Part shown: in pieces, positions 4,827 to 62,240 of the stretch | How the letters are laid out: each line of letters begins with the position of its first letter | How positions within the stretch are numbered: the first letter of the stretch is position 1 | Origin: Escherichia phage V18 | DNA: 64,000 nucleotides | Sequence record: NC_041937.1 | Reading direction: 5' to 3' (one strand) | Position numbers and translations under genes: made by a program | Notes under the pieces: generated by a model | Told to the model about the DNA's origin: nothing | Database searches by the model: none | What the model saw: only the letters and a program-made list of their open reading frames with translations

Positions 4827-5816
4827 TTGACGATGATGACAAAGTTAACTCTTGAGCAAATTTTAACACTAAAGCAACAGGGATACACTAATAGACAAAT
4901 TGCTCGTGAATTTTTAGGCCGTGAGTCACGTGAGAGCTGGATCCGACTACAGCTTAAACGTGCACAGGAGAATATGTCAGAGATTGTAGGAGAAGCAACG
5001 GAGCGCTTCCTTGAAGAGCACAAAGGTGCTAAAGTTTGGGTGTATGATACAGAGACATCTCCAACAAACGGCTGGTTCTTTGGGCACTATAAGACCAACA
5101 TTCAAACCTGCGGTATTGAAATTATGCCCTACATGCTAACTTTCGCAGGTAAGTGGTTAGACAGTCCTAGTGTGGTTGACTGCGCTCTTCCCGATTACAA
5201 AATGTGGGATGAGGATATTCACAATGATCTCGAATTGATTCAGGATTTGTGGTATTATCTGGATAAATGTGATGTCGCAGTAGCCCACAATTCAGGTTTT
5301 GACTGTGGGTGGGCCAACCAACGATTTGCATTTCACGGGTTGCCTCCAACAAGCCCCTACAAAGAGGTTGACACCCTTAAAATGATCAAGAAGGCATTCC
5401 GTTTGAATGCAAACACTTTGGAGTATGCATGCAAATACTTCCAACTGGCCCGACAGAAACTGATTGATCACACATTTGAAATGTGGATCAAGTGTGTCCA
5501 TGGTGATCTTGAGGCATTTAAACAGATGCGGGAGTATAATGTTGGTGATATCCTGTCTCTGGAAGGACTGTATTTGCTGGCTCGCCCGTTTGCTAAGCAG
5601 CACCCAAACATGTCATTGTACTATCAAGACGAGGAGCCAAAAGTTCGTTGTCCACGCTGTGGTGGAGAACACCTTCACGAGGAAGAAGCTTTGGCGTATA
5701 CTCAACTGAGTGCATTTAAAACATACCGCTGCGAAGGTTGTGGATCTGTTGTTCGTGACCGTAACAACATCCGCACCAGAGAAGAAATGAAAAATACCCT
5801 GATTCAGATAATCTAA
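4827..5816 (+). CDS. DEDD-family 3'-5' exonuclease with N-terminal HTH-like segment
   Basis: 329 aa; WVYDTETSP (Exo I), VAHNSGFDCGW (Exo II), YNVGDILSLEGLY (Exo III, YxxxD); N-terminal QGYTNRQIAREF; C-terminal CPRCGG…CEGCG zinc ribbon. Confidence 0.55.
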   Translation: MTMMTKLTLEQILTLKQQGYTNRQIAREFLGRESRESWIRLQLKRAQENMSEIVGEATERFLEEHKGAKVWVYDTETSPTNGWFFGHYKTNIQTCGIEIMPYMLTFAGKWLDSPSVVDCALPDYKMWDEDIHNDLELIQDLWYYLDKCDVAVAHNSGFDCGWANQRFAFHGLPPTSPYKEVDTLKMIKKAFRLNANTLEYACKYFQLARQKLIDHTFEMWIKCVHGDLEAFKQMREYNVGDILSLEGLYLLARPFAKQHPNMSLYYQDEEPKVRCPRCGGEHLHEEEALAYTQLSAFKTYRCEGCGSVVRDRNNIRTREEMKNTLIQII

Positions 5817-5824
5817 CAATTATA

Positions 5825-5850
5825 GGGAGGCTTGCGCCTCCCTTTTCCTT
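5825..5850 (+). terminator. rho-independent terminator
   Basis: GGGAGGC-ttgc-GCCTCCC stem-loop followed by TTTT, just after the stop of 4827..5816. Confidence 0.5.
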
Positions 5851-6678
5851 TTGGAGGCACTTTGAGCAAGAAAGAGTCCAACGACAAATACTACACAAAC
5901 CCTGAGTATGCAGAATATCTTGTTGGTAAAGTAAAAGATAAGTATGGGAATTGTGCATACGTTGAGCCTTCTGCTGGAAGGGGTTCTTTTTCAAAACTAT
6001 TTTCAGAGATACTGTCGTACGATTTAGTACCAGATCCTGAATTTGAAGGACCAACACCGTGCATTCAGGCAAACTTCTTGGAGGTGCATCCCAAGGCAGA
6101 TGTCTTCATAGGTAACCCACCATTTGGCAAGAATTCATCCTTAGCTTGCAAATTCTTTAACCATTGTGCATCATTGCTAGAGCTTGGAGGGGCTATAGCC
6201 TTCATCTTGCCACGGACATTTGAAAAAATTTTTTTCAAACAAACTGGACATGTCGATGCACCTTGTCTACAGCGAAAGGTGCCCTAAGAATTCGTTTTTA
6301 CTTAATGGCAAACCTTATGACGTGCCATGTGTTTTCCAAATTTGGGAGAAAAAGGCGTGCAATAGGGATCCTGTAGAGATTGGAGAGAATAAGTTATTTT
6401 CTTTTAGCACACCAGATGACTACGACTTCTGTGTAAGACGTGTTGGGTATAATGCTGGAAAAGTATTGGGGGATGATGACCCAAAATCTGAAGAATCAAC
6501 ATATTTCATAAAATCTTTAGTTAACGGTGTTGACAGAGTGTTTGCTGAATGCTATTCTTCTTTTCAAGAAGAAGCAGGTAAGACTGCTGGAATGAAGAGT
6601 ATAGGTAAGAAAGAACTACAATACATTTTGGAGACCAGGTATGATCAAAAGCATAGACTTGACCAAAGAACTTACTGA
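5832..6678 (+). CDS. N6-adenine DNA methyltransferase, frame interrupted near 6220-6290
   Basis: AdoMet motif EPSAGRGSF and catalytic IGNPPFGKN in ORF 5832..6287; continuation (…CVFQIWEKK) in ORF 6220..6678 in another frame; break in an A6T7 homopolymer stretch. Start codon uncertain. Confidence 0.5.
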
Positions 6679-19926: not shown

Positions 19927-20460
19927 ATGACTTGTGCTAGAAAACCTGATGAACAACGTAACGCCTACGATGAGTATGTGACACCGGAGTGGTGTGCAGA
20001 AGGGCTGTATGACCTTATTCCGTTCCCAGAAGACTGGACCTACTTAGAGCCTTGCAGGAATAGTGCCTCAGGTGTGTTCTACTCCCGTATGCCGTTAGGA
20101 TCTGCATGGGGAGAAATCCAAGAAGGTGTTGACTATCTGAATACAGAATACAACCATGTTGACTGTATTATCACCAACCCACCATACAGTTTGGCTCGTG
20201 AGTTTGTAGACAAGGCGTTGAAAGATGCTGACGTAGTTATTATGCTTTTGCGTCTTAATTTTCTGGAAAGCAAAGCCAGATTTGAATGGTGGCTTGATAA
20301 TGCACCTACCACTGTGATCACAATATCTAAGCGTCCATCTTTTCAATCAAATGGCAGAACTGACGGGCAAGCATATGCATATTTTGTGTGGGATAAGAAA
20401 AACCGTTTAGGCTTGCCGCCATTTATGTGGTTGGCACCACCAGAGGTAGACCTGAAATGA
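19927..20460 (+). CDS. small N6-adenine DNA methyltransferase (phage Dam-like)
   Basis: 177 aa; catalytic motif CIITNPPYSLAREF (NPPY). Confidence 0.5.
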   Translation: MTCARKPDEQRNAYDEYVTPEWCAEGLYDLIPFPEDWTYLEPCRNSASGVFYSRMPLGSAWGEIQEGVDYLNTEYNHVDCIITNPPYSLAREFVDKALKDADVVIMLLRLNFLESKARFEWWLDNAPTTVITISKRPSFQSNGRTDGQAYAYFVWDKKNRLGLPPFMWLAPPEVDLK

Positions 20461-52225: not shown

Positions 52226-55003
52226 TTAGTGACAATCACCCCAATTACGACCACACAAGTATTCACCTGTGATCTGGAACGGGACTCCCATCATTTTAGA
52301 AGCTTGCCAGAAGCAATGCACCACCATTTCACCCACAGGGCTCCAGATAAGCTCAAGCTTTCCGTCATCGTTCAGGATAGGATCGTACACCGTGTTTCCG
52401 TCTCTGTCAACCACTTCGTTTCCGTCCTCATCCTTGCGTGCCTTTTTGTACTTATGACCGTCGAACACATGAAGTTTGGCCTCCTGCTCTGCCTTAAATG
52501 CTTCCAGTTCTTCGATTGTGTCGAAGGTGTACACAGTCTTATACTTCGGTGTGTCAGGGACTTGAAGCTGATATTCGTCATGGTAATAGATAATACGACG
52601 AACACCTTCATCGTACCACCCACGCTTCACCATTTGGTGGTGCATGAGTATCCCAACTAAGTCACACAGCGATGCACCACCATTCTGTTGGTATGCATTA
52701 AGTAAAGAGTGTTTAGATCGGGTCCAGATAGCATGACCATCAAAAGAGTAGATAAACTTCTTACCCGTTGCTTCCCAGAATTTCTCCAGATCTTCTTTAC
52801 GCCCCTTAAGACCGGGGTTGGCATCCCAAAGTGCATCGATTACCCTTTGTCCCAACTCTGGAGAGATGTCCAGCATATCTGCAACTTTATCTTTTTGTGC
52901 CCCATACATAACCCCATACGTGATAGGTTTACCGTCGTTACGAGACACCTCTCTGCCTGCTACTTTTGTATATGCTTCAGCATTGTTTTGGTGTGCGTCC
53001 CCGTTACTTACAACATCATAATACAATCCGTTGTCGAACTCAAAGGCACCCCAAGCCCCGATAAGCTGCTCTAAGTTGGACCCGTCAATACCGATCTCAA
53101 AGTATCCTGGAGGAACACCCCACAGACTACGCATCTCTTTACCCATGACCACTTTAGGAGATGGTTTAGGCATGTTTGCACAAATACTGTGTTTCTGTCG
53201 GGAAGTGTTTGTTAACCCAGAGCTTTTAGCAGGAAGCTTATGGTCAATCTTCAAACGTGGATGATTAAGAAGACCAGTATCAACCTTATCCTCCTTGATT
53301 GGATCAAGTACCGATCTGCGGTTTCGCAATGATAACCACAAGACGATATCTTTAGCCATCTCTCCGTTCAATTTTTCAAGATTCGGGCATAGGTGTCCAA
53401 ACGTATCTTTCAGTTGCGGAGAAGTAATAAGTGCCCTAGCTTTTCTACGTATTTTCCCGAATACTTCCTTTTTAATCCTTTCGGAGTTAGGAAAGCTTCG
53501 GAACTTGTGCACGGTTGTCTGGAACTTAGCATCAGTTTTGTTCCAGAAGTTGATAATCAGGTCACAATACTCTGACTCTAAAAGCTCGTCCATATATGCA
53601 TATACTCGTGCATCAACATCTGCATCAGGTAGAGCTTTCTTCTTGCTGTCTTTAGTTACATCCTTAGTTCTCCACATTGTCGGAAGCCAACCAGCACTGA
53701 TCAGGTATCGCTTAATGTCGTCCTGGTTGCTGATTTTCATAGGTATCTTGCAGTCCGGCATTCGCTTCTGCTGTAGATCACTTATTGCCTGATCCATTAG
53801 CTCTTTAGGTAAAGGTTGTGGTGTGGAGGTGCCCTTAATATAGCCTCTCAAGAAATCAGCCATCTTATCGGGGTCTTTGCAGCCCATCTCTTCACACCAT
53901 TTTATCCCCATCTTACTGACATCTCCTGTAGAGGTAAATGCTCGCTTAGGCGGGGCTTTGAACTCTAAAGCGCTCATATCTACAGGATAGCCAAGCTTAT
54001 CTTTTAACCATTTCCAACCATTATTGGAGATTGTCCCATCTTGGTTAAACGGCTTTTCAGGGAACTTGGGCCGCTGAGACATTGACAGCTCTTTTAAAGG
54101 TAGTTGCGGTTCAACACGATCAGCGATTTCTTTCATCCACGCATCGCAACGGTCACGTAAAGCAATAGCTCCATCTATGTCAAAATACACACCCTGACGG
54201 GCCTGCAGCTCCATCAGGAAGTGCTGCAGCATGCCTCGGCGTAATGCGTTCTTCCAGGTGATCTTCTTGAACCCTTTCGGCTTCTCTTTGGCAGGATCGT
54301 ACATAAAGTTCTGCATGTCAGATTTGCCGTAGAATACACCTTTTGATTCCGCTACCAGCTCTTTCCAGAGCAGCTCCTGGATGATAACGTCCTCGAATAC
54401 ACGATCCACATACTTCCACAACGGAAGATCGCGCCAGTCATCAATTTGAACTTTCTGGTTACCAAGGGCGTAGCCCCATGCCATAAGGCCGTGAGGACCA
54501 ACAGGTTGCATTTTCTTAGTAACCGGGTTGAATACAGCGTCCGGACAACCTTTTGGTAAAGGGCGATCAGGCCACAAGATTCGGCTCATAGCCAACGTAT
54601 CAAACAGGTTAACCTGGTGGTCGTTGATAGTCCCCATGCATTTAGGATCACGGAACATATCAAAATGAATACCGGATAATCTTTCCATCAGCATAAAGTC
54701 ATAACTGTAGCAGTTATGGCAGTTCAAAGCTGTTGGTGACCAGTCGGAATTGCCTGTAAGCCAACCTTCCAACTCCGAAAAATCTGCTATGCGAACTTCA
54801 AAATCTTTATAAAGAGTTTTCTTTGCCAGAATAAAGTTCTTAGCCTTTTCTATATCCTCCTCGGAGTAGTGTGTGCGGCTATTTAGAGGAAGGAACAGCA
54901 TAAAACGGTTCTTATTCAGCTCTTTAAACAGACCGCAGTGATAATAAAGATCTGGGTCTTCCAGCAAACCGGATGACTCAAAATCGAACGACCACATACT
55001 CAT
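52226..55003 (-). CDS. DNA polymerase, family A, with N-terminal 3'-5' exonuclease domain
   Basis: 925 aa; N-terminal FDFESSGL (Exo I); polymerase motif B …KPITYGVMYGAQ and motif C YYHDEYQLQV. Confidence 0.85.
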   Translation of the reverse strand: MSMWSFDFESSGLLEDPDLYYHCGLFKELNKNRFMLFLPLNSRTHYSEEDIEKAKNFILAKKTLYKDFEVRIADFSELEGWLTGNSDWSPTALNCHNCYSYDFMLMERLSGIHFDMFRDPKCMGTINDHQVNLFDTLAMSRILWPDRPLPKGCPDAVFNPVTKKMQPVGPHGLMAWGYALGNQKVQIDDWRDLPLWKYVDRVFEDVIIQELLWKELVAESKGVFYGKSDMQNFMYDPAKEKPKGFKKITWKNALRRGMLQHFLMELQARQGVYFDIDGAIALRDRCDAWMKEIADRVEPQLPLKELSMSQRPKFPEKPFNQDGTISNNGWKWLKDKLGYPVDMSALEFKAPPKRAFTSTGDVSKMGIKWCEEMGCKDPDKMADFLRGYIKGTSTPQPLPKELMDQAISDLQQKRMPDCKIPMKISNQDDIKRYLISAGWLPTMWRTKDVTKDSKKKALPDADVDARVYAYMDELLESEYCDLIINFWNKTDAKFQTTVHKFRSFPNSERIKKEVFGKIRRKARALITSPQLKDTFGHLCPNLEKLNGEMAKDIVLWLSLRNRRSVLDPIKEDKVDTGLLNHPRLKIDHKLPAKSSGLTNTSRQKHSICANMPKPSPKVVMGKEMRSLWGVPPGYFEIGIDGSNLEQLIGAWGAFEFDNGLYYDVVSNGDAHQNNAEAYTKVAGREVSRNDGKPITYGVMYGAQKDKVADMLDISPELGQRVIDALWDANPGLKGRKEDLEKFWEATGKKFIYSFDGHAIWTRSKHSLLNAYQQNGGASLCDLVGILMHHQMVKRGWYDEGVRRIIYYHDEYQLQVPDTPKYKTVYTFDTIEELEAFKAEQEAKLHVFDGHKYKKARKDEDGNEVVDRDGNTVYDPILNDDGKLELIWSPVGEMVVHCFWQASKMMGVPFQITGEYLCGRNWGDCH

Positions 55004-55061: not shown

Positions 55062-57055
55062 TTAAAAAGGCGTTTCATCATCCTCAAAACCAGGGACCGG
55101 GTCAGAGGATGGATCATCGTACTGGAGGTCTTCCTGCGTGTCAACAGGCTTAACAGTAGGAGTTACAACCTTATCAGCCACAACCTTGCCCATAGGTGTT
55201 TCTACAACTGCATGCTCCTGATCCTCAAACATAGCCTGAGGTCTCCAAACAACCTCCCCGCCTTCTCCGTCTGTAAACATTTGCATTTCTTTGTCCCAGT
55301 ACCAATTACTGGCATCATGGAACTTACCTGTGTGCGGGTCCATAACCAAAGTGTCAGCAATACCTAGAGTTTTTGCTGGACGGTTTTTAAGACCTACCAG
55401 ACGGACACGTCCACGAGAACGATCCACCATTTCTTCGGCCTCGACACCTATGACTACCCAACTCAACTGTTCAAGCCCAGCCGATCCTCGCAAATTCTCT
55501 TTTCGCACAGGATACCAGAAAGGTAACGGGTTACCATCCTTGTCCTTAGGAGGCACAATCTCTGTACGTTTGAGGTGAGCGATCACCAAGATAAACACAT
55601 TAAACTGCTTACAAAACGCAGCCAGTTGGGTCATAGCCATGTCCAGTTCTTTTCGCTCATCCTTAACATTAAGCCCTGAAATTACCATGGACAGGTGATC
55701 CAGCACAATATAACGACAATGGTACAGGCAAACCATTTGCTTAAGCTTGGTAATCAACTCGTCCACCGGAATAGACCCGAAATGTTTGAACACTTTGATT
55801 TTTCCAGCTTTTGCCCATGATTGGTGAATCTCTGCGTGTTCTTGATCAGTTAAAAACTGGCTAGGATCTTCAACAAACTCTTTAACATCAAACCCTAACT
55901 GGTTTGCATACAAGGAGTTAATTGCTTCCTCTGGGTCCTCCTCAAGATGGATCATGCATAGACGATCATCCTCTTCATAGTCATCAGCCTTCGGGCATGT
56001 CGGGTCCATTAGGTATCTTGCAATACAGTGTTCCAGTTTTTTAGCCACGGTTGTTTTACCGCCCCCTGATGGCCCTGTAAGCATTACGAGTGTCCCTTTG
56101 TGCAAGCCTTTTAGCATTTTTTGCAGTTTTGGGAACTCTGCGCTGATATCTACCCCGTTGGAAGTCTTTTTCCGCAAAGACTCGATAGAGAAGTCTTCTA
56201 AATCCGACACAGCATCAGGCACATATTTAACAGGATGCCGGAACATGTTGACAATATCTTCCAGCTTTTTAGCCTTCAGCATGTCACGGATATCTTTTAC
56301 ACCGTCAGGATCGTTTACCTCACCGGGGTATTCTACGTGGTAAACGTTATCAGCCATCAAAAATGCTGCAATATTGTGCGTGGCCTCGACACCTTTAATG
56401 ACGTGTTTTTGCTTCTCTACCTCGTTAGCTGCATCGTTATCCATTGCCAGCACAACTGTTCCATAGCTACGGATAAACTTCTCATTGTTTGCAAAAGTAT
56501 CTACTGCGTTTGCACATCCACAGTTAATTCCAACAAAAGGTAGGCAAGGTTTTCCTGCCAGATCACCACCGTTGATAACTGCGTCGATCCCGTCCTGGAC
56601 CTCTTTAGCCCACTGCTTCACCTTTGCCGGGGCTTTAGCGTTGGTGAGAATCCCTTTTACTTGTATCTGATATGCAGCCTGCCATGCTGCAATAACATCA
56701 CCTTCTCCCTCACAAACGTTAATCTGCTTACGGTTGTTGGAAGATGCACACAGCTTTTGACCAAACATCTGGGAGTTGGCCTTTACTATGCTACTACAGA
56801 CCAGTGCCCTTTCTGCTCTTTCGGCTTAGACCAGTCACGCTTTTTGAAACCAGACAGATTTCCGTAGCGGTCGTAATATGGGAAATATGTTGCAGTGACT
56901 GTCACACCGTCTTCTTGGGACAATGCTGATCGCACACCAAAATATTGTGCAGCCATCAGACCGATATTTTGTTGTGGGACAGGGACAATTTTAGTATTTT
57001 CTAAAACAGTCTCTACAGTTTCAACCTCTTTTTCATCACGATAGTCTCGTTTCAT
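55062..57055 (-). CDS. primase-helicase (TOPRIM primase domain + DnaB-family helicase), N-terminal part in a different frame
   Basis: ORF 55062..56768: TOPRIM EGEGD and LAMDNDAAN; Walker A LTGPSGGGKTT; Walker B-like FILVIAHL. A separate 89-aa ORF 56786..57055 immediately upstream ends 18 nt before it in another frame; I did not identify a primase motif in it, so the join is positional. Confidence 0.65.
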
Positions 57056-57128
57056 ACTACCCCCACTTTTGTATCTTGTTGCAACTGGGTTAGGTTCTCC
57101 ATAGCGGCTATATGCAGAGGATATAAAC

Positions 57129-57914
57129 TTATTCCCCTCTCCTTACTACAGGCTCGTTTGCTAAGAATACAGCTTTTGCCCAGCCACGTGGTGTGAGGCT
57201 TCGAATCATCTTCGTTCTTGCACTCTTTCCACCAAGCTTGGCGTGTTGCATGGAATACCCGCTAACCACGTCAACTATTTGCGGGACAGGTTTTGTGTCC
57301 GGGATTATAAATCCATTACCTATCCAGCCGCAAGTTATTTTTGGATAGGCATCACGTGGAGCTATAAATTCAGGAAACCATGGGTTTACATCATCCTCAG
57401 GTAAATACCCGCCATAGTCAGAAGGATGAAAACGGTAATCAGGTTTGCGCCACAGTGTGGACATAACACCAACAGGATTCTCTACATGCCACGGGCAATC
57501 GTAAATCTCTCCCAGCTCTTCCGCAACCCGAGCATCCTTTACAGCATTAATTTGGATCATGGGGTCCTTAGCCAGCTTTTTCTTAAAATGTGCAGCACCC
57601 GATACCGCTAAATGCGTGCACGGAGGAAATGCAAGAATAAAGTCTGGAGCTGGATACATGCAAAAAGTTTCCTGAGGGAACCACGGGTCAATCCAATAGT
57701 CAACATAGTGAATGTTGGGATGATCGGTTATCACCTCTGCATAACTGCCGTGATCAGCACCTTCTGCGTTAAAGCACAGGCACAGATATCCAGCTTTTGC
57801 CCAGTCAATGACTGCACCACCAGACCCGTCAAATAGACTCCACACAACACCTTTGTGGTAGTGTTCTTTGTAGATAAATTTCAATTTGCTGTCTCCTAAT
57901 GCAAAAAGCCCCAC
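57129..57914 (-). CDS. C5-cytosine DNA methyltransferase-like protein
   Basis: 261 aa; LFDGSGG (motif I F.G.GG), FPPCTH (motif IV PC), HVENPVG (motif VI ENV); shorter than typical Dcm-type enzymes. Confidence 0.35.
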   Translation of the reverse strand: MGLFALGDSKLKFIYKEHYHKGVVWSLFDGSGGAVIDWAKAGYLCLCFNAEGADHGSYAEVITDHPNIHYVDYWIDPWFPQETFCMYPAPDFILAFPPCTHLAVSGAAHFKKKLAKDPMIQINAVKDARVAEELGEIYDCPWHVENPVGVMSTLWRKPDYRFHPSDYGGYLPEDDVNPWFPEFIAPRDAYPKITCGWIGNGFIIPDTKPVPQIVDVVSGYSMQHAKLGGKSARTKMIRSLTPRGWAKAVFLANEPVVRRGE

Positions 57915-57930
57915 CCTTTCGGGCAGGGCC
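57902..57930 (-). terminator. rho-independent terminator (minus strand), identical to 47228-47249
   Basis: GCCCCACCCTTTCGGGCAGGGC at 57908-57929 followed by a U-run on the minus strand. Confidence 0.45.
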
Positions 57931-57935
57931 TAGTG

Positions 57936-58418
57936 TTAAACCCGGATACCTATTGTATACTCGGTGGATACCAATGTCAAATCTAAATTTAAAATTTCTT
58001 GCATCTCATAATATGCGTCCAGGGTGAGATACATTTCCCCATCCTTTTCTACATACTTGTCCAAGTGCTTGAGGCATTTCGGATAACTATCAAGTGCAGC
58101 TTTCAGACACTCAAATTCTGTGCTGTTGATGAATCCTTCCATCTTAGCTACCCGTTCTGGAGTAACGATAGCACTGTAGTGAGATTTAGCTTCCTGAATG
58201 CAATGGGTCCAAGCATCAACTTTCTCTTCAAAAAGTCCGAAGAACTTCTTTTTGGTGAGCTTCAGATTCTTTAAGTGCTTAAGCACTCGGTTGCCGATCA
58301 CAGCTACATCACGAAACTTAAGGATCACTTTGTCGATATCCTCGCGGCCTATTTTCACAAAGCAAGCCTCGCACATTTCAGGAGTGGCATAGCCTACTTT
58401 CCACATAAAATCTGACAT
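57936..58418 (-). CDS. hypothetical protein
   Basis: 160-aa ORF between two methyltransferase-like genes. Confidence 0.35.
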   Translation of the reverse strand: MSDFMWKVGYATPEMCEACFVKIGREDIDKVILKFRDVAVIGNRVLKHLKNLKLTKKKFFGLFEEKVDAWTHCIQEAKSHYSAIVTPERVAKMEGFINSTEFECLKAALDSYPKCLKHLDKYVEKDGEMYLTLDAYYEMQEILNLDLTLVSTEYTIGIRV

Positions 58419-58430
58419 AGCACTCTCTCC

Positions 58431-58826
58431 TTATTCCTGAAAAGCAACGATATCATATGAACTTGCAGATGATCCTGGTGAAGAATGACTCCAGTCTAGG
58501 TCATCAGAGTAGTCAGCGTACTGTGCACCACTACGTAGTTTGTATTTTACCCACTTACCTGGTGCAGGGTTTTCACCACCTTCCCATACTTCCCAGCCTT
58601 CTGGCAGGCCGTCCTGGGGGTAGTCATCCACCTCACTAATAATCTTAGGGTTTGGCACCAAGATCCCCGCAGGCTCTTCCTTCCGGATAAGTGTCCACAC
58701 AGCGCAGGTGTCTGAGCAGGCGCATGATAGCAAAGTATATCCACTATTCAGAACTTCTGCAAGCTCTTTTTCAGCATCTTCTAATTTGGTTAAGTGGTAT
58801 TGGATAATCTTCACACCTGTAATCAT
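58431..58826 (-). CDS. hypothetical protein
   Basis: 131-aa ORF. Confidence 0.35.
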   Translation of the reverse strand: MITGVKIIQYHLTKLEDAEKELAEVLNSGYTLLSCACSDTCAVWTLIRKEEPAGILVPNPKIISEVDDYPQDGLPEGWEVWEGGENPAPGKWVKYKLRSGAQYADYSDDLDWSHSSPGSSASSYDIVAFQE

Positions 58827-59170
58827 CAGAAACCTCCCACTTCTTCAGCAAATGCAGCTGCTGTCGTCGCTGCATCCAGATAGGACTCTAGTTCACGGGA
58901 TGCACGTTTGTAAATTGAGTGGCGCATATCGTTTGGCAGTTGGTGGAAGTCCACCTCTTCACCGTTGTGGTAAACATGCACATCGGTAATTTGTCTAAAT
59001 CCGTAATAGTCAACATCAGAATCACGGCACTCTGGGTCTGGCAACTGGACAACTGCCTGAGCTTCCACAGTGAACATATCGTCAAGTTCGAAATCGATTT
59101 CAAAAGTGTATGGTTTATAACGTTTCATCATTTGATTGTGCTCTTTATTGATCAGACTTATCTTTCGCAA
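58826..59170 (-). CDS. hypothetical protein
   Basis: 114-aa ORF. Confidence 0.35.
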   Translation of the reverse strand: MRKISLINKEHNQMMKRYKPYTFEIDFELDDMFTVEAQAVVQLPDPECRDSDVDYYGFRQITDVHVYHNGEEVDFHQLPNDMRHSIYKRASRELESYLDAATTAAAFAEEVGGF

Positions 59171-60470
59171 TTAAGGTCGGGGTAAGTTTGTAATAACGGA
59201 AGCCACCACCACCTTTCCAGTTTACAGACTTAGAAATACCACCTTGATCTTCGCCATCGATCACTTTTTCCAAGCGCGGAATAATATGGGTATGACAATG
59301 ATCACCTAGCTCGATTGAGATCCAACGTCTTTTCATCTTGTGAGCTACAGCAGCAGTAGTTCCCGAACCACCGAATGAATCCAATACCAAATCGCCTTCT
59401 CGCGTACACATTTCTAAAATCCGCTTCAAAAGAGCTTCTGGTTTTTTCCCATTTTTGAAACTGACGCCGCCTTCATTTGCTATTCCATTCCAACTAATGT
59501 CTGTCCAAACATCAGTTATTAGTTCCGCAGGTTGCATCTCACCGTCAATTTCCAAAAGTCTATTGGAGTAAAAGACCATTTGCCTACCATTTGCGATATA
59601 AAATCCTTCAACATCCTCATTTGGATGTACATAAACCTTATCCCTATCTTTCTTTGACTTCTCGATAGTTTCTTTTCTCTTTATTTTAGCACCACCACCA
59701 ATTGCAACAGATTGAAATACACGTTCTGCATTATCAGTTGCGAATTGTGCTAATTCATCATCGAATGTATCAGGCAGTTTTTTCTTGGCTTCTTTTGCAT
59801 CTTTATAACCATTGGCCTTTGCAAACGCATCGGCAATACCGCACCACGTCCAATTTTTATAATGGTCATCCGGGTTTAATAGGTATTTGTTATATCCTGT
59901 ATCATACCCTTTAGGTATATAGATTTTGTTAAGCGGTTTCTGGGTGCGATCTTTTGCATATACAAGCAAAAAGTTTGCTGTGGAGAAAACTGTGGCTCCT
60001 GTTGCCTTAAATCCCGAAGGGGAATTTGTGGTCATCGATATGGTATTTAACTGATTTGCACGACCAAAAATCTCGTCCATCAAAACTTTTAAATACGCCA
60101 TTTCGCAATCATCTAAGTGAACGAATATTACCCCATCATCACTTAGAAGATTACGAATTATTTCTAACCTATCCCTCATTAAGCCCAGCCAAATGGAATG
60201 CTCCAGGCTATCATCGTAGTGCTCAAAAGCCCTTCCGGTATTGAATGGTGGGTCTATGTAAACACACTTCACTTTGCCTGCATACTCTTGCTCTAGCGCC
60301 TTCAATGCTAATAAGTTATCTCCAAAAATCAGTTTATTATCAAAAATATCGTTTTCGGTCACTTTCTGGCTGTGGTAAGACTTGCTAGAATCCTCTAACA
60401 AAATGTGCGGCTCTAACTTTTTGCGCTCGTTTTTACCTATCCAGGTAAGTTCTAATTTGGTTTTGCTCAT
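59145..60470 (-). CDS. DNA methyltransferase, beta-class N6-adenine/N4-cytosine type
   Basis: 441 aa; catalytic VYIDPPFNTG upstream of the AdoMet motif VLDSFGGSGTTAAVA (beta-class order). Confidence 0.7.
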   Translation of the reverse strand: MSKTKLELTWIGKNERKKLEPHILLEDSSKSYHSQKVTENDIFDNKLIFGDNLLALKALEQEYAGKVKCVYIDPPFNTGRAFEHYDDSLEHSIWLGLMRDRLEIIRNLLSDDGVIFVHLDDCEMAYLKVLMDEIFGRANQLNTISMTTNSPSGFKATGATVFSTANFLLVYAKDRTQKPLNKIYIPKGYDTGYNKYLLNPDDHYKNWTWCGIADAFAKANGYKDAKEAKKKLPDTFDDELAQFATDNAERVFQSVAIGGGAKIKRKETIEKSKKDRDKVYVHPNEDVEGFYIANGRQMVFYSNRLLEIDGEMQPAELITDVWTDISWNGIANEGGVSFKNGKKPEALLKRILEMCTREGDLVLDSFGGSGTTAAVAHKMKRRWISIELGDHCHTHIIPRLEKVIDGEDQGGISKSVNWKGGGGFRYYKLTPTLIAKDKSDQ

Positions 60471-60531
60471 CGTTTGGTGCTCTCCTTAGTTTTTGTGGGG
60501 AGGAGTGCCTCCCCTTTATACTCACATCTTA

Positions 60532-60873
60532 CTACTCAAGGTCTTCAGAGTCAAGCTCAAAAAGAATCAAACTGTGCATGCCTGCAGAGAGATTAACACA
60601 CCCTGCAACAATAAGGGTTTGATAGTAAGGTTCAGCACCCTCAATGTCTTCGTTAAAATCCACAACAAGGTAGTCACCTTTGTTAAAGGTGTATTTGTCC
60701 GATGTAAACGCAAAACCTGCCCAGTCCCCTACTGCAGGATCTTTATCAGTCACCTTTGTTAGCAGTAGATCTTTTTCACGAGATCTTTTAGTAAAATCGT
60801 GAATCACAACATCCTTCTCTTCAGGAGTCGGATTGCCACACACGTAGTTAACGATATTTCTCCACAAACTCAT
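60532..60873 (-). CDS. hypothetical protein
   Basis: 113-aa ORF. Confidence 0.35.
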   Translation of the reverse strand: MSLWRNIVNYVCGNPTPEEKDVVIHDFTKRSREKDLLLTKVTDKDPAVGDWAGFAFTSDKYTFNKGDYLVVDFNEDIEGAEPYYQTLIVAGCVNLSAGMHSLILFELDSEDLE

Positions 60874-62240
60874 ACGTCCCCCTCTTCTGCTCTGGTTTCA
60901 AAATCTTTCCTGACAATTTTGTCTAAGTCAGGGAATGTTGTATTGTAAAACTCTACGACTCGCGGGTCAACAATAATGTCAACTTCTCTTAGCGGACGCA
61001 ACAAGTTTATTCCTTGTATTGTCTTAACTCTACTCAAAGCGACATACGTCATCCCAGGAGAGAAAGCTCCGTTCTTTCCAAGGTCTAGGTTGTAACAATC
61101 TAGCGTAAGTCCTTGACTTTTATGAGATGTTACGGCGTACCCAGATTTCAGAGGAAGTTGCTTGTATGACCCAATCACTACCCTCTCTATAAACTTCTCC
61201 ATCTTCCTTTCTGCAATGTTGTATCTCTGAGATGGCTTATACTCGTTATTCTCCCACAACCTCTGCTCTATGTCAACCTGTGTTCCATCTTCAAGCTCTA
61301 CCACCACCGCCTTGTTCTTAAATTTAACAATCGTGGCACGTGTTCCGTTAACATAATAAGGTACTTTGTGCGTCGGGTCAACATCGTTGGCGGTTATCAT
61401 AACTTTCATGCCAATTTTCAACTTCATCTCCTGCTCAACTGGCAGGGTGGAGGGAAACTTACCCTTCATTTCACCAGTGTATACCTTCTCTGGGGCGTTG
61501 ATGGCATCATAGAACCTTCTGTTCACTTCCTCTGCTTGTTTGTTGGTGGCGCAAATTGTGAGAGCATCTGTTGGTACACCACCTTTGTAACAGCGAGCAT
61601 TAAGTTCTGCTACAACCTCTTTTATGCGACGACCCTCACGAACACAGTTGAGCATTGTGGCAAATCGAATAGACTCCTGTCGGAACTGATCTATTAGGGC
61701 TATGTTGTGGAGGTCAAGCTCTTTCCAAGATTCGGTATAGCAACACAGGTCCGTATGGTAGAAGTTGAAATAGGCTTCCTTCTCCATAGAAGAGACAACA
61801 GGAGGTGCCTGGTAAAAATCGCCAAACAATATGACCTGTATGCCTCCGAAAGGTTTGTCATTTTTTCGAAGGAAGCGGAGTTTCCTATCCATCTCTATAA
61901 ACTTATCAGCGCGGATCATAGAGATTTCATCGATAATTAGGATGGTAAATGCCTTGCTTTTCAAAGGCTTTGCTGTTTTTGCCCTTATTGCGGTCCAGTC
62001 TGACTCCATGCTCACACCTGCTGCAAGATCGAAGGTTCGGTGTGCTGTTGCTCCATTAACGTTTAAAGCGGCTACCCCTGTCGGGGCAACCGTTATGCAA
62101 GAGTCTCCATACATTGACTGGATCATGTTGATGAGATACGTCTTCCCACAACCTGCAGGCCCTGAAACGAAGACATTCTCACCACTCATGATTGCAACGA
62201 GGGCAGCATCTGTGCCTACATCATACTGCCCTTTTTCCAT
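60870..62240 (-). CDS. superfamily 1 DNA helicase, Dda/RecD/Pif1-like
   Basis: 456 aa; Walker A VSGPAGCGKTYL, Walker B ILIIDEISM, further SF1 motifs (VILFGDFYQ, GYAVTSHKSQGLTL, VALSRV). Confidence 0.7.
   Translation of the reverse strand: MEKGQYDVGTDAALVAIMSGENVFVSGPAGCGKTYLINMIQSMYGDSCITVAPTGVAALNVNGATAHRTFDLAAGVSMESDWTAIRAKTAKPLKSKAFTILIIDEISMIRADKFIEMDRKLRFLRKNDKPFGGIQVILFGDFYQAPPVVSSMEKEAYFNFYHTDLCCYTESWKELDLHNIALIDQFRQESIRFATMLNCVREGRRIKEVVAELNARCYKGGVPTDALTICATNKQAEEVNRRFYDAINAPEKVYTGEMKGKFPSTLPVEQEMKLKIGMKVMITANDVDPTHKVPYYVNGTRATIVKFKNKAVVVELEDGTQVDIEQRLWENNEYKPSQRYNIAERKMEKFIERVVIGSYKQLPLKSGYAVTSHKSQGLTLDCYNLDLGKNGAFSPGMTYVALSRVKTIQGINLLRPLREVDIIVDPRVVEFYNTTFPDLDKIVRKDFETRAEEGDV

Follow-up and report, generated by a model that had tools for sequence, protein, structure and literature searches.

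Stand-alone DNA methyltransferases, encoded without a nuclease, are known from several phages, and the Dam enzymes of T4/T2 and P1 and the Dam and Dcm enzymes of T1-like phages are generally read as self-protection against cognate restriction–modification (RM) systems. One compact C5-cytosine enzyme has been characterized experimentally: the 711-bp ‘Dcm-like’ gene of phage K42, a KarlJaspers-type phage, is the trigger of retron Ec86, and its product yields 5-methylcytosine (5mC) on multicopy single-stranded DNA, as measured by liquid chromatography with mass spectrometry (LC-MS), with CCWGG as its site (bioRxiv 10.1101/2023.08.16.553469). The K42 enzyme is active alone from a plasmid and is inactivated in a combined C82A/E128A/K175A/K176A mutant (10.1101/2023.08.16.553469). 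Here, we analyze positions 57129–60470 of a 64,000-nucleotide stretch of Escherichia phage V18 (NC_041937.1; hereafter, the window), in which a C5-cytosine-like gene and a beta-class adenine methyltransferase-like gene lie on either side of three small genes. We consider it likely that the two flanking genes encode unrelated orphan methyltransferases whose protection would be narrow, and that the three genes between them are independent of both.

All open reading frames (ORFs) that an earlier note, made from the bare sequence, had assigned to this stretch were found at the same coordinates, on the minus strand. By megablast, positions 56700–60900 match 116 phage records at 90–99% identity, nearly all of them Vequintavirus (rV5-like) E. 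coli myoviruses, among which EmilHeitz, WalterGehring/Bas51 and further Vequintavirus genomes stand at 97–98% nucleotide identity. These matches place the window within the genome of an rV5-like (Vequintavirus) E. coli myovirus. The annotated gene order in Bas51 runs DNA polymerase, primase/helicase, ‘Dcm-like C5 cytosine methyltransferase’, three hypotheticals, ‘putative N6 adenine methyltransferase’, a hypothetical, DNA helicase, rIIB and rIIA; in relatives, the adenine methyltransferase gene (hereafter, Mod-like) is also annotated ‘type III RM methylation subunit’. The stretch is thus the replication-gene module (rIIB, Pif1/Dda helicase, small genes, primase/helicase, DNA polymerase) of a well-sampled genus, and both methyltransferases are already known, being annotated as stand-alone enzymes in more than 100 near-identical published genomes. 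Since the genes are publicly annotated and the C5 family has an experimentally characterized member, they have little significance as a discovery.

The Dcm-like C5-cytosine DNA methyltransferase gene lies at 57129–57884 (minus strand). Its ORF remains open to a GTG at 57914 (57129–57914, 261 aa, with the motifs FDGSGG, FPPC, and ENPV); TTG 57884 is the likely real start, giving a protein of 251 aa, because an AGGAG ribosome-binding site (RBS) precedes it and homologues begin at the same position. The three motifs correspond to motif I (FxGxG), motif IV (PC, with the catalytic Cys), and motif VI (ENV) of C5 methyltransferases. Among 25 aligned homologues, FPPC (P97, P98, C99) and ENPV (E145–V148) show no variation, and G30, the glycine of motif I, shows almost none. 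The protein matches phrog_757 ‘DNA methyltransferase’ at 9e-87 and has 3543 homologues, mostly of 226–250 aa, from phages or prophages; tblastn finds the gene in 1504 phage records, which include Drexlerviridae, Dhillonvirus, RB49-like, Klebsiella, and other phages, so that this ‘Dcm-like’ family is widespread in enterobacterial phages. A profile of the 25 sequences matches exclusively C5 methyltransferases in the PDB (DNMT3B, M.HaeIII), with weak E-values of about 0.2–1, and phmmer matches are likewise weak. An AlphaFold2 (AF2) model of the protein (predicted local distance difference test [pLDDT] 86, predicted template modeling score [pTM] 0.85) gave 48 Foldseek matches at E ≤ 0.001, all of them DNMT3-family complexes or a prophage cytosine methyltransferase, so that nothing among the top matches points to a different Rossmann-fold enzyme, the possibility that the earlier note had named as fatal to its reading.

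A characterized relative supports this assignment. The Dcm of KarlJaspers (Bas06), encoded by a 711-bp gene, and the window protein share 54% identity along the full length (BLASTP, E-value 4e-86, 235 aa, bas06_0055), and the K42 enzyme is near-identical to it. The KarlJaspers/K42 (Drexlerviridae) enzymes share with the window protein a compact size of ~230–250 aa, the same PHROG family and the same BASEL annotation, whereas the phage family and the gene neighborhood differ. Residues C82, E128, and K175 of the KarlJaspers enzyme align with C99, E145, and K192. Motifs I, IV, and VI and the motif IX-like LTPR are also common to the canonical C5 enzymes of PF00145 (M.HhaI, M.HaeIII, DNMT3A/B, E. 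coli Dcm), from which the window protein differs in having PPC instead of the usual (G)FPC(Q) and a very short target-recognition region. With the catalytic motifs, the fold matches and the 54% identity to KarlJaspers Dcm, the C5-cytosine class proposed for 57129–57914 holds.

The second enzyme, at 59145–60470 (minus strand), is an orphan Type III Mod-like, beta-class N6-adenine DNA methyltransferase of 441 aa. It matches PF01555 at 1.2e-42 (146.8 bits, cut-off 26.7), and its DPPF (residues 73–76) precedes FGGSGTT (367–373), which is the beta-class order of motif IV before motif I and agrees with the class given in the earlier note. Its best sequence relatives in the PDB are Type III Mod proteins (H. 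pylori Mod 6k0w, 6e-29; EcoP15I Mod, 1e-24; Mbo45V), and among phages beyond the genus, Campylobacter phage methylases (38–42% identity) and P1 Mod (34% along the N-terminal 175 aa) come nearest. Type III Mod proteins (EcoP15I, EcoP1I, H. pylori) align with the window protein at its N-terminal ‘LELTWIGK’ region and its catalytic core. However, true Mod proteins have ~620–645 aa, and the window protein is ~180–200 aa shorter, with a reduced central region and no C-terminal extension. No res gene was found near it: downstream lie genes for proteins of 101, 131, and 160 aa, and upstream those for a 113-aa protein and the Pif1/Dda superfamily 1 (SF1) helicase. None of these neighbors is a Res, a superfamily 2 (SF2) helicase-nuclease of ~900–1000 aa, and therefore the enzyme is an orphan and not part of a Type III system. 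The same holds for all four methyltransferase-like genes that had been listed for the window, each of which is without a nuclease partner.

The two genes differ in how they are distributed. The dcm-like gene is found at the same position across the genera of the subfamily and is a fixed feature of its replication module. The Mod-like gene is carried by ~86 of ~115 Vequintavirus records and is absent in about a quarter. Phage I29 lacks exactly 59134–60466, an ORF-precise presence/absence cassette of 1333 bp that holds the gene, and both flanks align at 95–99%. The cassette is bordered by imperfect direct repeats of 17–20 nt over the RBS and start codon, AGAGCACCAAACGATGA and AGAGCACAATCAAATGATGA, and at the I29 junction (I29 5058–5066) the upstream RBS region is joined straight to the start codon of the first small gene downstream. 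The Mod-like gene is a recently gained or lost accessory cassette; unlike Type III Mod subunits, it has the behavior of a mobile cassette of one gene, carried by a lytic phage. A swap of target-recognition regions between Mod alleles was also considered and was rejected, the differences from FV3 being scattered.

As to mechanism, Cys99 of the PPC motif would attack C6 of cytosine while Glu145 of ENPV would protonate N3; the likely product is 5mC, and the target may be CCWGG as in the characterized homologue. The shortened Mod-like enzyme most likely makes N6-methyladenine at a short target of its own, without Res. Each enzyme would then methylate replicating phage DNA at its own short motif, and protection would extend only to restriction enzymes of matching specificity, making it narrow, not broad. 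What the sequences show directly is the identity of the genes, their folds, their distribution and the polymorphism of the cassette, whereas the targets, enzymatic activity in phage V18 and protection are inferred. The earlier note had suggested broad anti-restriction protection from multiple orphan methyltransferases, a proposal that is contradicted by experiment. In the BASEL study, the Vequintavirinae were ‘exceptionally’ sensitive to RM, the six systems tested being EcoKI, EcoCFT_I, EcoRI, EcoRV, EcoP1_I, and EcoCFT_II, and among the Drexlerviridae there was no simple link of methyltransferase genes to restriction resistance (PMC8594841). Thus, unlike in the case of the T4/T2, P1, and T1-like orphan enzymes, protection is not evident experimentally in this subfamily.

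Several observations weigh against our explanation. Because the high sensitivity of the Vequintavirinae extends to all six RM systems tested, any protection is putative as well as narrow. E. coli K-12 supplies Dam and Dcm itself, and because the host already has both, the phage copies could be redundant there. We found no methylation data for phage V18 or its genus in the literature searched, and the rV5 genome paper mentions neither methylation nor restriction. For the Dcm-like protein, there is no PF00145 or NCBIfam match at E ≤ 0.1, although a few of its homologues do carry a precomputed PF00145 flag. Neither hhalign against E. coli Dcm nor Smith–Waterman alignment identified a motif X at the C-terminus; hhalign of the 25-sequence profile aligned motif IV alone, and the Smith–Waterman alignment of the C-terminus was not significant. 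The C-terminal RSLTPRGWAKAV, which holds the LTPR segment, resembles motif IX by eye only (E. coli Dcm: RRLTPRECARLM). Moreover, K176 of the characterized enzyme is Ile in the window protein, and the variable region VPQIVDVVSGYSMQH, which precedes the GGKS motif, is unlike that of the K42/KarlJaspers enzyme, so that CCWGG specificity is a guess for the rV5-type enzyme. The window has 120 CCWGG sites where 78 would be expected; the motif is hence not avoided, which is uninformative for the target. By its predicted fold and catalytic motifs, we assign the protein to a divergent clade of the C5 superfamily and do not count it among the members of the PF00145 model.

The sensitivity of the Vequintavirinae also lends itself to another account, in which the methyltransferases serve roles internal to the phage, such as the timing of replication or packaging, gene expression, or the marking of phage versus host DNA, and not restriction evasion. 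The genes do lie inside the replication module, beside helicase, primase, and polymerase, the position of dcm is the same across the genera of the subfamily, and these phages are without effective RM protection in the laboratory. Nevertheless, ~25% of genomes do without the Mod-like gene, which is thus dispensable in nature, another methyltransferase-like gene of the window (with the motif NPPF, see below) is frameshifted, and no methylation-dependent step is described for these phages in the sources searched. We consider such internal roles improbable but not negligible.

Between the two orphan methyltransferase genes lie three small genes on the minus strand: u160 (57936–58418, 160 aa), u131 (58431–58826, 131 aa, isoelectric point [pI] 4.4), and u101 (58826–59131, 101 aa, pI 4.5), of which the last two encode acidic proteins. 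The ORF of u101 is open to a TTG at 59170, and its start is most likely ATG 59131, without overlap of the Mod-like gene, given the start context and a database homologue of 101 aa. u160 matches phrog_12900 only and is restricted to the genus, occurring in 114 phage records, all Vequintavirus and none below 95% identity; among 1.84 billion (1.84e9) representative proteins, searched exhaustively with HMMER, it has only 5 matches. A zinc finger was considered for u160 and rejected because its CxxC pair is not conserved. u131 (phrog_11995) has 39 near-identical homologues and is found in Vequintavirus, with weak C-terminal matches in Wifcevirus phages; it has one sub-threshold, unrelated match (Auto_anti-p27, E-value 0.0047), and its AF2 model, with a pLDDT of 50, is unusable. 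u101 (phrog_4240, 5e-33) has two near-identical proteins by word-indexed search and weak relatives in Erwinia phages, as well as one that is syntenic in Salmonella phage SSE121. A fourth small acidic protein, u113 (113 aa, pI 4.4, phrog_11869), is encoded at 60532–60873 (minus strand), directly upstream of the Mod-like cassette, and is conserved in I29 and FV3.

There is a slim chance that u131, u101, and u113 are anti-defense factors, inhibiting, for instance, retron Eco1/Ec86 or type IV restriction that sense methyltransferase activity or methylated DNA, all of the evidence for this being their position, their acidity and their strict conservation within the genus.

The earlier note had instead offered the sandwiched genes as specificity or regulatory partners, which would make a five-gene functional module with one or both methyltransferases. 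The bracketing is a real gene order: u160, u131, and u101 are adjacent, co-oriented, and conserved in all Vequintavirus genomes. It is, however, not a conserved unit. I29 keeps all three unchanged, together with dcm, though it is without the Mod-like gene, and in SSE121 and the phAPEC8-like ESCO25, dcm is present while u160, u131, and the Mod-like gene are absent. The three genes occur in ~114–129 phage records, as against 1504 for dcm, and are absent from ~1,400 other dcm-carrying phages. C5 and Type III Mod enzymes have their own target-recognition region. The K42 Dcm homologue works alone from a plasmid (10.1101/2023.08.16.553469). Profile searches of the three proteins against Pfam and NCBIfam recovered no specificity or regulatory family: there was no match above threshold, and none to HsdS, helix-turn-helix, or controller proteins. 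One weak match, of u101 to phrog_1573, a small family labeled ‘DNA methyltransferase’ (5e-5), would favor a partnership and was discounted, this 138-aa family being too small for a methyltransferase.

The interval between u160 and dcm also speaks against a module. It holds a strong terminator-like hairpin at 57906–57931 (minus strand), whose 11-bp stem is followed by UUUUU and whose free energy is −21.8 kcal/mol (z −3.3). The hairpin comes after the stop codon of u160 and before the RBS of dcm, and thus between the three genes and dcm, which suggests a transcript boundary inside the supposed module. Taken with distributions that are uncoupled from both methyltransferases, this makes a partner role very unlikely, and the distribution across phages largely refutes it. 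The three genes seem instead to code for small phage proteins that are independent of the two enzymes and confined to the genus or subfamily, and not for methyltransferase subunits. A putative sigma-70-like promoter (TTGACA-17-TACAAT, 11/12) is seen at 57952–57980 (minus strand), inside the last codons of u160, with the terminator-like hairpin only a short way downstream of it, an odd order for the two. The promoter match overlaps the C-terminal peptide DLTLVSTEYTIGIRV of u160, and a homologue with an overall identity of only ~45% has exactly the same peptide, a hint that coding and regulation both constrain this sequence.

Least credible is a reading in which the C5-like enzyme installs a group other than methyl, for example carboxymethyl from carboxy-S-adenosylmethionine (Cx-SAM) as does phage CmoX, with the neighboring small genes elaborating it: the family does have a PPC motif, comparable to the CmoX signature SPPC, and E. 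coli natively makes Cx-SAM (PMC12783734), but we rejected it as unlikely because the window motif is FPPC and not SPPC, the neighbors (101–160 aa, no enzyme matches) include no CmoA-, CmoY-, or ligase-like gene (the check for cmoA covered these neighbors alone), and the K42 homologue gives 5mC by LC-MS (10.1101/2023.08.16.553469), and furthermore RSLTPRGWAKAV looks like motif IX and not like the motif X position of CmoX R350, and no motif X Arg (HhaI-N304 position) is assignable.

Four methyltransferase-like genes had been counted in the window, and three are intact: the two orphan genes described above and a small NPPY gene at 19927–20460 (plus strand). The NPPY gene encodes 177 aa, matches phrog_799 ‘DNA methyltransferase’ at 5.5e-67, has sub-threshold matches to Pfam Dam and EcoRI_methylase, and is annotated ‘putative N6 adenine methyltransferase’ in Bas51. 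The fourth, an NPPF gene at 5862–6675 (plus strand) with gamma-type order (EPSAGRGSF, then NPPF), is frameshifted: within the tract GAAAAAAT(A)TTTTTT(G)C, the loss of one base at 6230 and of another at 6236 splits 5832–6678 into the ORFs 5832–6287 and 6220–6678, two and not one, with protein matches in two frames. Aligned base by base, the gene of WalterGehring is an intact ORF of 272 aa. Among 118 related records, no match to the frameshift stretch reaches 100% identity, and the 12 best matches listed each have two more bases; the frameshift is a mutation private to this phage or else an error of sequencing. The 272-aa protein matches phrog_5172 at 2e-128 and, partially, phrog_799 at 4e-13. 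For both the NPPF and the NPPY proteins, Pfam and NCBIfam matches all fall below the curated cut-offs, and no relatives were found in the PDB by sequence. A regular-expression scan of all window ORFs gave no further real [DNS]PP[YFW] methyltransferase candidate.

Other features of the replication module also vary among close relatives. The primase/helicase gene (55062–57136, minus strand), an essential gene, appears disrupted, a 1-bp deletion at 56791 shifting the frame after residue 116. At 57134–57140, a 666-bp segment with a free-standing homing endonuclease gene is missing relative to EmilHeitz; its loss also takes away the primase ATG and alters the last residues of the Dcm-like protein, and the junction is common to no other record of the phage collection. 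The DNA polymerase gene (52226–55003, minus strand) is a single ORF of 925 aa in the window and is annotated in WalterGehring and EmilHeitz as a two-piece join split by a homing endonuclease. Homing endonuclease content differs among close relatives throughout the module. Additionally, some 16–20 GenBank records named ‘Campylobacter phage’ (MG0656xx) are 95–99% identical to E. coli rV5-like phages; they are probably mislabeled or contaminant assemblies.

Restriction resistance is not predicted by counts of phage methyltransferases; the subfamily Vequintavirinae is highly sensitive to RM. Since a homologue triggers retron Ec86, dcm can even work against the phage that has it; if the small acidic proteins do have an anti-defense role, it would offset this cost of the gene. 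The natural pairs of Vequintavirus with and without the Mod-like gene offer a ready comparison for the benefit of an orphan Type III Mod to a lytic phage.

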